Below are positions 6,501 through 11,616 of a stretch of DNA of 21,374 nt, one piece after another. Location of the stretch: positions 1 to 21,374 of the forward strand of contig JBBQPO010000078.1 in the NCBI GenBank assembly GCA_038217285.1, given 5' to 3'. Positions within the stretch are counted from its first letter, which is position 1. Every line of letters begins with the position of its first letter. This stretch comes from Chthonomonadales bacterium. Lineage in GTDB: Bacteria; Armatimonadota; Chthonomonadetes; Chthonomonadales; Chthonomonadaceae. The translations under genes and the position numbers were made by a program. The notes beneath the pieces are model-generated. The model was not told where the DNA came from. It worked only from the letters and a program-made list of their open reading frames with translations, and searched no databases.

Positions 6501-7472
6501 CTATTCCGGGTCGGTCAACCAGAGAGCGATGGCGGCGAGATCCTGCGCGCGGTCTCCAAGGGCAGCGGGGACGATGCGGCAGGCATCCCGGATACGTTTC
6601 CATGCGAACTCTTCGACTGCCGCCTCGATGGGGTGCATGATCAGGTCGCCTGCATGGACGGCGATGGTGCCCAGAGCGATGCACTCCGGGTTGAGCATCT
6701 GCATCACGTTGGCGATCCCGACCCCCATATAGGTTCCGGCCTCTTCGAGAATCTGTATGGCGAACGGATCGCCCTCTTTCGCCGCTTCGATGATATGATA
6801 GGCGGTGATGTCGGCGGGCTTACCGCCTGCCAGCATCAACACCCGTCTGTGCCGGCCGTAGCGGGCGCTTTCGCGGGCGAGGCGGGCGATCGCGGGGCCG
6901 GAGGCGAGGGCTTCGAGGCAGCCGCGCTTGCCGCAGCCGCACAGCGGACCGTTCATCAGAATGGTCTGGTGTCCGATCTCGCCGGCCAGATCGTTCGCGC
7001 CGTGCGCCAGCCTTCCATCCAGGATGATGCCGCCGCCGATACCGGTGCCCATCGTGAGGAAGACGAAGTTGCGTGTTCCCTGCCCGGCTCCGAACCGCCA
7101 TTCGGCAAGCGCGGTGGCGTTGGCGTCGTTTTCCACCCGAACCGGCAGCGCCAGCGCCTTCTCGAAGAACTGTCGTACCGGAACGCCTTCCCAGCCGGGG
7201 AGGTTCGGCGGGGCATAGACGATACCCGTTTTGGTATCGAGCGGTCCCCCACAGGAGACACCGACCCCGCGCACGGAGCCCGGCTTCACGTCCTCCGCCG
7301 TCAGCAGCTCACGCGCCATAGCCGCCAGCCGCTCCAGCACTTCGAGCGGGCCGCGCAGGTCCGGGCGCGTCGGCTCGCTGCGGCGCTGCCGTATCTCACC
7401 ATCGGTAGTCGCCAGAACGACTGCCGACTTGGTTCCCCCAATGTCCACACCCAGAATCAACTTCCCGTCCAT
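6501..7472 (-). CDS. ROK-family sugar kinase (glucokinase)
   Basis: GVDIGGTK, ENDANATALAE, GTGIGGG, GEIGH and the Zn motif CGCGKRGCLEA; no N-terminal HTH. Confidence 0.92.
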   Translation of the reverse strand: MDGKLILGVDIGGTKSAVVLATTDGEIRQRRSEPTRPDLRGPLEVLERLAAMARELLTAEDVKPGSVRGVGVSCGGPLDTKTGIVYAPPNLPGWEGVPVRQFFEKALALPVRVENDANATALAEWRFGAGQGTRNFVFLTMGTGIGGGIILDGRLAHGANDLAGEIGHQTILMNGPLCGCGKRGCLEALASGPAIARLARESARYGRHRRVLMLAGGKPADITAYHIIEAAKEGDPFAIQILEEAGTYMGVGIANVMQMLNPECIALGTIAVHAGDLIMHPIEAAVEEFAWKRIRDACRIVPAALGDRAQDLAAIALWLTDPE

Positions 7473-7512
7473 GCGCCTCGCCTTCCTCGTAAATCGGAAT
7501 AGTGTCTGCGAT

Positions 7513-7539
7513 TTCGGCGCGAACGGGACGGATTCCTGC
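7513..7539 (-). promoter_or_regulatory. sigma-H-like promoter (GCAGG-N19-GAA)
   Basis: Minus strand GCAGGAATCCGTCCCGTTCGCGCCGAAAT upstream of the ROK kinase; resembles the B. subtilis sigma-H AGGA...GAAT consensus. Confidence 0.5.
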
Positions 7540-7644
7540 CTCGATGCGCATCACATGTATAGTTTACTTGCGAGGTCAACTCTTGTTAACTACCTGTACA
7601 TAGGTTCGACAGAAGGCCAGTTCATTGCAGTGATCTCCATATAC

Positions 7645-7683
7645 AAAAAGAGACACCCAGATAGTACAGCAGATCTATCTGGG
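7645..7683 (-). terminator. intrinsic terminator after the HTH gene
   Basis: 9-bp stem CCCAGATAG (7656-7664) / CTATCTGGG (7675-7683), followed on the minus strand by TGTCTCTTTTT. Confidence 0.65.
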
Positions 7684-7701
7684 CCGAATCATGCAGAGTG
7701 G

Positions 7702-7935
7702 TTACTGCGGATCGAGTCTCGCCGCGTAGTAGGCATCGAGCGCGGCCATGAACTCAGGCTTGACGTCTTTGAGGCCAATTTCAGCCTCGCTGACTCGTCC
7801 CTGGTTGACTCGCAGATCGTTGGCTACATCATGGACACGAAGCCCAAGGTGTAAGCGAGTGTCGGTGAGCCACTGTCCCTTGACAGTACACCGATGTTTG
7901 ATCGGCGGGCGTGGCCCGTTGTTTCCAAGGTGCAT
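7702..7935 (-). CDS. small XRE/Cro-like helix-turn-helix protein (77 aa)
   Basis: GQWLTDTRLHLGLRVHDVANDLRVNQGRVSEAEIG fits the XRE pattern (L..R..LGL...VA..L.V....VS..E.G). GAGGAG SD upstream of ATG 7935 and a terminator downstream. Confidence 0.7.
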   Translation of the reverse strand: MHLGNNGPRPPIKHRCTVKGQWLTDTRLHLGLRVHDVANDLRVNQGRVSEAEIGLKDVKPEFMAALDAYYAARLDPQ

Positions 7936-7970
7936 TTTGCACTCCTCTAGTAAGAGTGGCAAAACGAAGC

Positions 7971-8000
7971 TTGCTCTCACTCGGAAAAGTGAGGTATAAT
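7971..8000 (+). promoter_or_regulatory. sigma70-type promoter with a palindromic operator in the spacer
   Basis: TTGCTC (7971-7976), 18 nt, TATAAT (7995-8000). Inverted repeat CTCACT-N6-AGTGAG at 7976-7993. Confidence 0.6.
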
Positions 8001-8006
8001 CTTAAT

Positions 8007-8110
8007 TCAACATAAAGACTAGCAAGCTCCGGTTTGCCAGTTTACTGCTACGGTCTTTGCGAGAGACTTAGCAGCCTTGCCCCTAGTCTTCGACTAGGGG
8101 CAAACCTTTT
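8007..8110 (+). ncRNA. candidate ~100-nt structured small RNA, antisense to the intergenic part of the orf177-HTH transcript
   Basis: Lies between a TATAAT promoter and a plus-strand terminator and contains no ATG. Internal hairpin CTGCTA(8045-8050)/TAGCAG(8069-8074) encloses GTCTTT-GCGA-GAGAC. 5' AAGACTAGCAAG can pair with CTTGC-CCC-TAGTCTT. Confidence 0.5.
8077..8110 (+). terminator. intrinsic terminator, plus-strand polarity
   Basis: Perfect 12-bp stem TTGCCCCTAGTC-TTC-GACTAGGGGCAA followed by ACCTTTTAAT on +. No U-tract follows it on the minus strand. Confidence 0.7.
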
Positions 8111-8642
8111 AATATTCCTCTAATCCAGGCGGATCGCCATCCTCGAAATCTTCTTTGTCTTGATCGCCAGAACCTAGTTCTGTAAGTACTGGCAACGAGG
8201 TTGCTGGCCCTGCGTCAGCGCCAGGAACCAGGGAGCGATAGTGACTAGGAGCGATACGCTCGACGAATCCTTTAGTTTTGTTGTATGACAACTCAGCCCG
8301 TATACTCCGGTCGTTCGGATCAGTTATATACTGGTTGATATAGTCTCGAAGGTCCGCATAACTAAACTCTGTAGTCATAACCAGATACTGGTGCGTGAGC
8401 GACCTGATGCCTACAGTTGAAGATCCATGATGCGGAACACTGGTAATCCTTATCATAGTCTTACCCAGTCCAAGTTTGGCCTGGTAGTCTCTCAGAAACC
8501 GGATAGCTCCCTCAAGTTCTCTTGCCTTCGTCTCCTGCACCTCAGCCTTCTGCTTGTAATCCTCCGCCCGATGCAATGCGTCATTGAGTTGATACTCAGC
8601 ATGAGCAATCTGCTCTGCAACGATGCTCTCTCGCTCGGACAT
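8109..8642 (-). CDS. hypothetical protein (177 aa): N-terminal coiled coil, possible winged-helix domain, acidic tail
   Basis: AGGAGG SD 7 nt before ATG 8642 and a consensus promoter upstream. Helical, charged N-terminus; FSYADLRDYI...SIRAELSYNKTKGFVERIAPSHYR resembles a helix-helix-wing pattern. Confidence 0.7.
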   Translation of the reverse strand: MSERESIVAEQIAHAEYQLNDALHRAEDYKQKAEVQETKARELEGAIRFLRDYQAKLGLGKTMIRITSVPHHGSSTVGIRSLTHQYLVMTTEFSYADLRDYINQYITDPNDRSIRAELSYNKTKGFVERIAPSHYRSLVPGADAGPATSLPVLTELGSGDQDKEDFEDGDPPGLEEY

Positions 8643-8683
8643 TGGGCAGCCTCCTGTTGGGCAGGGGATCGTACTGATGGAAG

Positions 8684-8713
8684 AGTATAGCATCTGGAAT
8701 CGTGGCGTGTCAA
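8684..8713 (-). promoter_or_regulatory. strong sigma70 promoter with extended -10
   Basis: Minus strand TTGACA (8713-8708), 18 nt, TATACT (8689-8684), with TG-n immediately before the -10. Confidence 0.75.
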
Positions 8714-9026
8714 TCCTTCTGCCTATTTTTTATTGGCTAGGTGATTATTCTAGGGGTTGGTGCAGGTTGGATTGTAACATATATGTATCTATATAGGCAG
8801 TCGTCTGCGAAAGGTGGTTGTTGTTAAGCTTTCACAGAGGCTTGTGGGTCGCGACCTCATCGCGGTTGTGTTGGTTCCGATGGTGGCTCGGATGGTAGCT
8901 CTCCAGCCGGGGGACTGCTGGATCGGCAGGTGTGGCTGCTGTTGCTTCCTTGACGGGTAAGGTGGCGAGACTGATTATGATATGGAGATTATCGCCGAGC
9001 GTCCTGACGGTAACGCGCATATCAAC

Positions 9027-9191
9027 CTTGATTTTGTGAACGACCGAGCAGAGATCCGAGAGGCCTTTAGGCACTACTACGAGGGCGGGGAGACAGGAAA
9101 ATAATCCTATGTGGCACGGCTCTACGAACTGAAGCGTGACCTAGACGAAGCCGATATCTGCCTGCCCAAGGAAGTTGAGCGGTTTGCCTTT
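9027..9191 (+). pseudogene. hsdR: internal fragment of a type I restriction endonuclease R subunit
   Basis: Manual translation LDFVNDRAEIREAFRHYYEGGETGK*SYVARLYELKRDLDEADICLPKEVERFAF resembles, from memory, the HsdR segment after helicase motif VI (LDFVN...I..AF..YY....LY.LK..LD...I....EV..F). In-frame TAA at 9102-9104. Confidence 0.7.
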
Positions 9192-9193
9192 GG

Positions 9194-9455
9194 TGCTGGC
9201 AAGCGGTCTTATAGCTATTGAGATGAAATAACAGAATGCCTCCCACTCGCTATGGTCCACCAATTTTACCATAGCAATAGGGAGGCAGAGGGTTGGCGGT
9301 CACACCTGACAGCGGTTGATCCTGGGACGGCGCGGCCCGTTGCCGTAGGGAGCGTTGCCCTGCCGGGGCGCGGCGGGCGGATAGGGCTGCGGACACTGCG
9401 GGCGGGGGCGACGGTCTTGCTGTTGAAGACGGCCGAGACCGGAGCAGGAATATAC
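9194..9455 (-). repeat. decayed direct-repeat copy of the rhlE 3' end, TA promoter and antitoxin 5' end (partner ~10144-10490)
   Basis: 9325-9404 matches 10295-10374 at 75/80 nt. The palindrome 9238-9286 matches 10189-10235. ATT TCA TCT CAA TAG CTA TAA GAC CGC TTG aligns with antitoxin ATG CCG TCT CAG ACA ATC GAA GAG CGC CTG. Confidence 0.9.
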
Positions 9456-9557: not shown

Positions 9558-9974
9558 CTATGCCGACCAGTCTTCAATTCGAAGGTCAGGCACTTTCCCG
9601 AAATCCGACAGGTTACGCGTCAGTAGAACGGCATCGTTCGCGAGAGCTATAGAGGCGATTTTCAAATCCATGGTGCCGATGCGGACACGGGCCATCCAGA
9701 GGCGTTGGAAGTGCTCTATCGCCTTCTGATCGAAGGGCAATAATGGGGTAGTACAGTAGAACTGAAGCATACGTTCCAGCCGACGGTATCCGTCTAACTG
9801 TTGGTCCATCCTGCGTAGCGAGTTGATATGTGCGAGCCAACCACGCATCTGCTCTTCGTAACTGATGATGCTGGCGAAAACCTCGTCGGGTGATACAGCA
9901 GCGAGACGGACACGAATGTTGTGTCCGTCGCTGCGATCAATAAGCGATATGTGGTCTGTGTCAAGCAGATACAT
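9558..9974 (-). CDS. vapC: type II TA toxin, PIN-domain ribonuclease
   Basis: MYLLDTDHISL, SIISYEEQ and GTMDLKIASIALANDAVLLTRNLSDF carry the PIN acidic residues. Start overlaps the upstream small gene by 14 nt. Confidence 0.92.
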   Translation of the reverse strand: MYLLDTDHISLIDRSDGHNIRVRLAAVSPDEVFASIISYEEQMRGWLAHINSLRRMDQQLDGYRRLERMLQFYCTTPLLPFDQKAIEHFQRLWMARVRIGTMDLKIASIALANDAVLLTRNLSDFGKVPDLRIEDWSA

Positions 9975-10179
9975 CGTCGTCCGCAGGCGTGGGTTGAGAC
10001 TTACGGTATTCTGCACCGAGCCGCGTGGCTTCGTCGTACATGGAGTCGTCTTTGAACGCGCCCCATCTCTGCTCCCACCAGGGCGCCTGCGGTTGTGTAG
10101 ACGTGGTCCGTTGCCGCTTGAGCAGAAGAACCTCCACCTCTAAGGCTGCCAGGCGCTCTTCGATTGTCTGAGACGGCAT
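9961..10179 (-). CDS. probable cognate antitoxin (72 aa)
   Basis: Small gene directly upstream of and overlapping vapC, with GGGAGG SD. Pattern EERLAALE.EV..LK...PWWEQ.WG.F.DD..YDEA.RLG.EYR. Confidence 0.8.
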   Translation of the reverse strand: MPSQTIEERLAALEVEVLLLKRQRTTSTQPQAPWWEQRWGAFKDDSMYDEATRLGAEYRKSQPTPADDDVSA

Positions 10180-10188
10180 GACAAAATA

Positions 10189-10235
10189 CCTCCCTATTGC
10201 TGTGGTTAATCCATTATACCATAGCGATAGGGAGG
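10189..10235 (-). promoter_or_regulatory. TA promoter (TGGTATAAT) inside an 18-bp inverted repeat whose downstream arm contains the SD
   Basis: CCTCCCTATTGCTGTGGT (10189-10206) / ACCATAGCGATAGGGAGG (10218-10235), 16/18 complementary; -10 TATAAT at 10218-10213. Confidence 0.75.
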
Positions 10236-10269
10236 CAGAGTTTGTGGTAAGGTCACGCCTTACGGCGGA

Positions 10270-11616
<1,347 letters not shown>

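Follow-up and report, generated by a model that had tools for sequence, protein, structure and literature searches.

A candidate mirrored promoter pair, a predicted lock on the ribosome site and a predicted antisense RNA in the control region of a small helix-turn-helix gene from a Chthonomonadales bacterium

Does a long inverted repeat ahead of a bacterial regulator gene serve the RNA transcribed from it or the DNA itself? The question is raised by a stretch of 21,374 nucleotides (nt) from a Chthonomonadales bacterium (GenBank assembly GCA_038217285.1, contig JBBQPO010000078.1), hereafter the window, which is one of the 459 contigs of the 6.2-Mb genome that we searched. On its minus strand, an upstream gene that we call gene A is followed by a 173-bp spacer and then by a small gene encoding a helix-turn-helix (HTH) protein, and the spacer region holds an imperfect inverted repeat with 27-nt arms. 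The original prediction, made from the letters alone, was that the HTH mRNA adopts mutually exclusive folds: an anti-Shine-Dalgarno segment in one arm closes the Shine-Dalgarno (SD) sequence, the other arm (the activator arm) acts as an anti-anti-SD and frees it, and a small plus-strand RNA antisense to the activator arm tips the balance. Our analysis leads to a different order of importance. In the reading that we put first, and that we hold tentatively, the repeat is primarily a promoter/operator symmetry, the leader hairpin is an independent translational damper, and antisense-gated unlocking is a possible secondary layer.

The inverted repeat lies where the original prediction had placed it, with 23 matches, 3 mismatches and 1 gap between the arms (7949-7975/8021-8046). 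Its core (7957-7975/8021-8039) is 89% complementary, and its gapless score of 14 was reached by none of 500 shuffles (mean, 6.9; standard deviation, 1.1; maximum, 12). Promoter-like sites were scored out of 12 hexamer positions, and with a cut-off of 8/12 only two were found on both strands of 7930-8115, each the mirror image of the other. Their -10 hexamers, TATAAT (7995-8000) and GATTAT (8001-7996), overlap with positions 2 and 6 (A2/T6) base-paired, each -35 box, 18 nt away from its -10, falls at the inner end of a repeat arm, and the repeat core and the overlapping -10 pair share one axis, at 7998.0. A preprint describes this 18-bp-offset layout with overlapping -10s as the commonest type of bacterial two-way promoter, enriched in acquired DNA (bioRxiv 10.1101/2020.01.31.928960). 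The coincidence of axes is expected if the symmetry belongs to the DNA, and an arm-to-arm RNA helix then follows automatically once both arms are transcribed. A model in which the RNA switch comes first leaves the exact coincidence unexplained; with the loop length free, we estimate that it would arise by chance in a few percent of cases. The mirrored promoter pair on the repeat axis thus provides a DNA-level reason for the repeat, and a two-way promoter accounts for the symmetry no less well than an RNA switch does. The mirrored -35 boxes, their weakness, which is typical of regulated promoters, and the acquired-DNA context point the same way.

We propose that a small low-GC cassette, acquired horizontally, is controlled from the spacer, the core of which would be a two-fold symmetric, back-to-back promoter pair. 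If the two promoters fire, as we infer from their geometry, the rightward one (TTGCTC-18-TATAAT) would drive a terminator-ended RNA of ~100 nt and the leftward one (TTGCTA-18-GATTAT) would start the HTH mRNA near 7990, the 27-bp inverted repeat representing their mirrored -35 and upstream halves. Since the repeat is longer than RNA polymerase needs, we infer that it is also a regulator-binding site. The regulator would probably be the HTH protein itself, and the inner palindrome at 7976-7993, the sole exact copy in the window, would be a conventional operator candidate. By reading the sequences, we found palindromes at the same position in the antisense promoters of five related loci (L005, L008, L010, L011 and L012, the first four of which are described below). 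The arms themselves contain GCAA-N8-TTGC palindromes, whose centers lie 63 bp from each other and ~41 bp from the respective predicted starts, and the motif TGGCAAA-N4-AGCTTGCT, which occurs within the window at the two arms only. The inner palindrome seems the better and more conventional operator candidate.

A transcript from the mirrored minus-strand promoter would have a 55-nt leader that includes the lock on the ribosome site and lacks the activator arm; a start downstream of 8021 is what the original prediction had named as incompatible with a role for that arm, and for this transcript it would apply. The lock is an RNA feature and not a DNA palindrome. The predicted pairing of 7964-7954 with 7944-7935 is present on the minus-strand mRNA and had been thought to cover part of the SD and the first base of the start codon; ViennaRNA confirmed that the SD is involved, but the hairpin proved longer and stronger, with 7966-7959 and 7957-7952 pairing with 7946-7933, so that the entire AUG (7935-7933) is covered together with the SD, GAGGAG (7947-7942). 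The energy of 7968-7933 is -13.6 kcal/mol, compared with -7.9 kcal/mol for the same stretch on the plus strand; in its 51-nt context (7975-7925) the hairpin reaches -18.0 kcal/mol (z = -3.15), a value equaled by none of 200 shuffles. A short-leader HTH mRNA would therefore be expected to lock its own SD and AUG in a 14-bp hairpin, which would keep HTH synthesis low. A further minus-strand promoter-like site, TTGCCA-17-CAAAAT (7934-7962; 9/12), takes its -35 from the arm motif and shares bases of its -10 with the HTH start codon; an RNA made from it would begin inside the HTH coding region.

Rightward of the shared axis lie the elements of a small RNA. From 8006 to 8112 (107 nt), the plus strand is predicted to form three hairpins, with a total energy of -47.5 kcal/mol (z = -6.37), and a terminator-ended plus-strand RNA of about 100 nt is plausible. 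The RNA foreseen by the original prediction has in its favor a perfect -10 and a T-run found on the plus strand only, but its -35 matches just 3/6 positions, no Rfam model reached its gathering score anywhere in the window (the best E value within 7600-8800 was 0.41) and none of the RNA runs searched contained the locus (7650-8750). A coding function was considered for a 29-codon frame starting with TTG (8034-8123, plus strand) and dropped, as the frame lacks an SD and continues across the terminator, so that translation of it is improbable.

The rival that survives best makes the RNA switch primary. The HTH gene would be translated from a long-leader or bicistronic RNA in which 8046-8021 is the anti-anti-SD, the plus-strand RNA would keep translation off and its loss would turn translation on; the repeat would have been selected for RNA pairing, the mirrored promoter being a by-product. 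We regard this as possible but doubtful. Its three-state folding logic is a true property of the sequence: folding and cofolding with and without the plus-strand RNA returned three mutually exclusive states, ordered as had been proposed. On the minus strand, 8050-7925 folds arm to arm at -47.5 kcal/mol (z = -5.78; 0/200 shuffles as good) through 5 + 7 + 11 pairs, 23 in all with one G-U, interrupted by one 1x1 mismatch and one 2x3 loop. In a leader reaching at least 8046, this form is 9.9 kcal/mol better than the locked one (-37.6 kcal/mol). In the predicted folds, the activator arm thus wins the competition as supposed, but the SD does not become fully free, as the ribosome site is still held in a weak hairpin of -6.8 kcal/mol. 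When the long leader is cofolded with the plus-strand RNA, the two form a full duplex and the SD lock re-forms, and the complementarity of that RNA to the activator arm, and to a read-through RNA, is perfect. With the short leader, the cofold gains just -1.5 kcal/mol and the lock stays intact, and the idea of activation in trans by the plus-strand RNA was dropped on that ground. The length of the arms, the RNA specificity of the SD hairpin and the better folding of the repeat region on the minus strand also speak for a primary RNA switch.

What counts against it, besides the position of the repeat axis on the mirrored promoter pair, is the source of the long leader. Upstream of the arm, a scan of 8090-8330 gave no promoter-like site on the minus strand, even when the threshold was relaxed, so that the long leader needs read-through from gene A, whose own promoter at 8713-8684 is the only evident source. 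Read-through is plausible because the minus strand has no U-run after the hairpin at 8077-8103. A leader peptide was also looked for, and the spacer holds no minus-strand open reading frame (ORF) of at least 30 amino acids (aa) except a 5' extension of the HTH frame. The original prediction is partly supported: it stands in its alternative folds and in the plausibility of its RNA and, in our tentative reading, yields on the primary meaning of the repeat. In the reading that we favor, the same states would form a possible second layer: a read-through RNA from gene A would carry both arms, fold arm to arm and relax the ribosome site, and the small RNA complementary to it would restore the lock and probably trigger cleavage of the duplex.

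Table 1. Coordinates of the features at the HTH locus (window positions; a dot in the strand column, no strand given)
Feature	Positions	Strand	Basis or remarks
HTH gene, Xre/Cro-CI-type, 77 aa	7702..7935	-	ORF list; ATG at 7935-7933
SD/AUG-locking hairpin, 14 bp, one bulged C, 5-nt loop	7933..7966	-	ViennaRNA
SD GAGGAG, 6 nt ahead of the HTH AUG	7942..7947	-	Read from the sequence
Inverted repeat, left arm	7949..7975	.	Anti-SD of the HTH leader and -35/upstream part of the plus-strand promoter
Candidate small-RNA promoter TTGCTC-18-TATAAT	7971..8000	+	9/12; -35 at 7971-7976, perfect -10 at 7995-8000
Inner perfect palindrome CTCACT-N6-AGTGAG, candidate operator	7976..7993	.	Between the plus-strand -35 and -10
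Mirrored candidate HTH promoter TTGCTA-18-GATTAT	7996..8025	-	8/12; -35 at 8025-8020, -10 at 8001-7996
Predicted small RNA, about 100 nt, three hairpins (8016-8043, 8045-8074 and the terminator)	8007..8112	+	Fold
Inverted repeat, right arm	8021..8046	.	Inside the predicted plus-strand RNA; mirrored -35 TTGCTA (8025-8020); "activator arm" if transcribed on the minus strand
Terminator hairpin, 12 pairs, then ACCTTTTAAT	8077..8103	+	Scan; T-run on the plus strand only; 6 nt from the convergent gene A stop
Gene A, orphan, 177 aa, long N-terminal helix, acidic C-terminal tail	8109..8642	-	ORF list
Gene A promoter, strong, TTGACA-18-TATACT with TG	8684..8713	-	Promoter scan, 11/12

Relatives of the HTH protein bear on all of these readings. 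An exhaustive HMMER search returned 16 matches at E <= 0.001 besides the query, the nearest 48-52% identical. Five loci with a co-directional upstream gene and a long spacer were kept (L005, the same place as L014 and L017; L008; L010; L011; and L045), and three others (L001, L007 and L013) were set aside as false positives, their matches lying inside unrelated large genes. The scan gave an antisense promoter of 11/12 in three of the five loci (L005, L008 and L010) and a terminator of antisense polarity directly after the stop of the upstream gene in three (L005, L010 and L011); the two occur together in L005 and L010 only, and L045 shows neither. The spacers of L005, L008 and L010 align with one another, and in all three a sense promoter (10-11/12) lies upstream of the whole antisense unit, so that the HTH 5' untranslated region (UTR) would be complementary to the entire RNA. 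These antisense-spanning leaders, and the long-range helix that RNAalifold predicts on either side of the antisense promoter in the same three loci, are in keeping with a primary RNA switch. On the other side, in their consensus fold another anti-SD, from a different upstream segment, keeps the SD paired even when the leader is long, and the switch of the window is therefore not seen there; the covariation term of the folds is about zero, with three sequences only. MAFFT could not align the spacer of the window with those of L005, L008 and L010, and the likeness between the loci is one of layout only, not demonstrable homology.

The antisense RNA of these three metagenome or metagenome-assembled-genome loci (regions L005:1165-1520, L008:2166-2515 and L010:1290-1650) has a conserved multi-hairpin shape with 4 compensatory pairs. 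It is ~135 nt long, with the promoter TTGACA-17-CATAAT and 4-5 hairpins, and the loci also share a structured sense leader of ~230 nt before the related HTH gene. Neither RNA has an Rfam match, and Rfam gave 0 matches in seven related loci; the antisense RNA may represent an uncatalogued RNA family.

In a second rival, the small RNA is real but acts mainly elsewhere, on the gene A mRNA at its 3' end or on the junction between gene A and the HTH gene. There, as for lambda OOP or SR6 of Bacillus, a duplex cut by ribonuclease III (RNase III) would set the stability of the gene A mRNA or uncouple the two genes, the SD pairings being incidental. The predicted RNA does end a few nt from the gene A stop and shares the hairpin of gene A, and in L005, L010 and L011 the terminator of a convergent RNA likewise lies right after the stop of the upstream gene. 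A precedent is SR6, which extends over the 3' end of yonT and also over the 5' end of the next gene in the same operon (PMC5848175). Nevertheless, we find this rival improbable: the product of gene A is not a toxin of the small hydrophobic kind, the genes that lie upstream in the relatives show no relation to it or to one another (DUF5343 in L010, nothing in the others; DUF5343 was unmentioned in the literature searched), and both the strength and the position of the SD hairpin speak firmly against an incidental structure.

The reading that we favor draws on the significant, RNA-specific SD hairpin, the energetics of the switch, the polarity of the terminator, the antisense signals of the relatives and the Xre-type HTH protein with its matches to C.BclI and ClgR, in addition to the DNA geometry. 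Several observations weigh against it. The mirrored minus-strand promoter scores only 8/12, and such sites are frequent (13 in 2x1201 nt of the island), so that its support is the exact mirror geometry. The plus-strand promoter went unlisted by the standard scan because its -35 is so poor. The 23 matched positions in 27 exceed the need of RNA polymerase, and a binding protein must be assumed to account for them, yet the GCAA-N8-TTGC palindromes of the arms are weak, with 4-bp half-sites only. In the genome, the inner palindrome shows no excess of copies and the arm motif has no further exact copy (with at most 2 mismatches, 6 matches compared with 5 for the control pattern); neither is enriched over reversed-pattern controls, and the idea of a regulon was dropped. 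The repeat region folds 6 kcal/mol better on the minus strand than on the plus strand, the outcome expected from selection on RNA. Finally, a covariance model (R1) of the RNA of L005, L008 and L010 found no match to the window at E <= 10 among 19 sources, and L009, the closest relative with locus DNA, has a 12-nt spacer and no such RNA.

The last rival does without a functional small RNA: the hairpin at 8077-8103 would merely terminate gene A, the plus-strand promoter would be either a fortuitous match or a weak by-product, and the HTH protein would autoregulate its own promoter through the repeat and the inner palindrome as operators. It has in its favor the weak -35 missed by the standard scan, the lack of an Rfam family, the failure of model R1 and the habit of Xre and controller-type HTH proteins of binding paired palindromes at their own promoters, but little likelihood is left to it by the perfect TATAAT, the T-run on the plus strand only, the z score of the 107-nt plus-strand fold and the recurrence in relatives of 11/12 antisense promoters with matching terminators.

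The cassette itself appears to be specific to its lineage. The GC fraction is 0.48-0.52 in the island and 0.48-0.55 over about 7600-9200, compared with ~0.61 in the flanks. No second copy of 7600-8800 was found in the genome and no target duplication was seen by eye, and the idea of a miniature inverted-repeat transposable element or other repeat element was dropped. Contigs from four DNA runs that were sought at 80% likeness over 7419-8817 differ by 0-2 letters; the island is an orphan, and no diverged copies that might show covariation turned up among them. The full repeat pattern had no match in a collection of assembled genome contigs, HTH relatives were not found in viral contigs, and a word-index protein search returned the HTH protein and gene A of the window alone. 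To the left of the cassette, a ROK-kinase gene is matched over 6502-7397 by contigs of a relative at ~85% identity (132/896 letters differ); the matching ends at 7397, beyond which these contigs run on unlike the window, and another contig matches again only from 9960.

The HTH protein matches HTH_31 of Pfam weakly (E = 5e-5, under the gathering score), but HTH_31 is matched by 10 of the 12 family members in our alignment (A1), and HTH_31 or HTH_3 across the family; the same alignment backs the ATG at 7935 as the start. Compared with solved structures, its profile matched ClgR, C.BclI (E = 7.7e-5), C.AhdI, HigA2 and phage repressors. In related loci, the HTH gene lies between the Cas3 and Cas5d genes (L015), directly ahead of a C5 methylase and an HNH nuclease (L006) or after an N6/N4 methylase and a DndB-like gene (L009), which suggests a family of regulators tied to defense-type islands. 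These three loci do not show the arrangement of long spacer and antisense unit; L005 and L006 come from Armatimonadales and Chthonomonadaceae genomes. In the window, the low-GC island ORFs that were scanned (HTH, gene A and the 40-aa ORF at 8982-9104) matched no methylase or nuclease family.

For gene A, the start was set at 8642 because AGGAGG sits 7 nt upstream and a promoter lies at 8713-8684. Its product is charged. Protein searches found no relatives, Pfam gave a weak DUF7669 match only, there were zero matches in PADLOC, PHROGs and NCBIfam, and the Atlas returned unnamed clusters only, plus a HARE-HTH lead at 0.88. A single-sequence AlphaFold2 (AF2) model reached a predicted local distance difference test (pLDDT) score of 51 and was therefore too poor for a fold search. 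Farther along the window, two short adjacent plus-strand ORFs of 40 and 36 aa (8982-9221) have no Pfam match and may be fragments of a larger decayed gene. A gene for a PIN-domain (VapC-like) protein (9558-10016), with an overlapping upstream ORF of 72 aa (region 9558-10179), is bracketed by a direct repeat of ~250-330 bp (9195-9450 and 10145-10480) with blocks 73-94% identical, and the right-hand copy takes in the 3' end of a DEAD-box helicase gene (10270-11616). The arrangement suggests an insertion accompanied by duplication of the target.

If the RNA layer is true, the same 27 bases would act twice, as mirrored promoter halves in DNA and as anti-SD and anti-anti-SD arms in RNA, so that switches of transcription and of translation would be coupled with unusual economy. 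What they would control is a regulator of the type that, in relatives, neighbors CRISPR-Cas and restriction-modification genes. The analysis also points to a recurrent, as yet uncatalogued association of antisense small RNAs with HTH genes in a poorly studied phylum. A wider claim, which we consider rather unlikely, is that the loci exemplify an undescribed module of acquired or defense-type islands in the phylum, in which the HTH 5' UTR or intercistronic leader holds a complete antisense-RNA gene that gates translation through anti-anti-SD competition; the window would then be its most compact form, promoter symmetry and RNA switch sharing the 27-nt arms. If the DNA layer alone is true, what is left is a divergent promoter under ordinary autoregulation, together with a hairpin that damps translation.

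How does the locus compare with known systems? A literature search brought up no description of such an antisense and anti-anti-SD arrangement ahead of an HTH gene, although this is slender ground for calling it unpublished. Closest in logic is the replication control of IncI-alpha/IncB plasmids. In ColIb-P9 (Inc RNA/repZ) and pMU720, a leader-encoded antisense RNA binds an upstream element whose long-range pairing enables downstream translation (PMC8053102). Here, too, the ribosome site would be closed locally and opened by an upstream element, as judged from predicted folds only. In the plasmids, the activator is a short pseudoknot that depends on a leader peptide, whereas the window has a predicted 23-bp helix and no leader ORF; and the plasmids gate a replication initiator, whereas the gene gated here would be a small HTH regulator on a chromosomal island.

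Closest in layout is yonT/SR6 of Bacillus subtilis (PMC5848175), with a 77-100-nt antisense RNA between two genes of one unit, convergent with the upstream gene and overlapping the start region of the downstream one. SR6, a member of a type I toxin-antitoxin system, is believed to act by direct pairing at the ribosome site of the downstream gene, whereas the RNA predicted here starts ~70 nt from the ribosome site and does not reach it. Lambda OOP has a similar layout. The toxin that characterizes type I systems such as yonT/SR6 and bsrG/SR4 has no counterpart here, gene A encoding a charged protein of 177 aa with no PADLOC match. On the side of DNA, the window resembles the 18-bp-offset bidirectional promoters, which likewise have opposite-strand -10s with positions 2 and 6 paired in AT-richer acquired DNA (bioRxiv 10.1101/2020.01.31.928960). 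It differs from them in that its symmetry takes in both -35 regions and reaches 27 bp outward, far beyond what a promoter requires, and in that one product is a predicted terminator-ended small RNA.

The controller (C) proteins of restriction-modification systems, with their C-boxes, share with this locus a small Xre-type HTH protein (the family profile matches C.BclI and C.AhdI) and paired symmetric candidate sites at its own promoter. Unlike in their circuits, there is no adjacent methylase or nuclease gene in the window, although such genes are present beside the family member in L006, and we know of no C-protein circuit in which an antisense small RNA takes part. In hok/sok, P1 C4 and P4 CI, whether translation occurs depends on which of several folds the mRNA takes, and a small antisense RNA sways the choice; hok relies on a 5'-3' fold-back and 3' processing, and C4 and CI are processed from the transcript that they control, neither of which is evident here. 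If real, the arrangement at this locus would be a variant of known antisense and leader controls.

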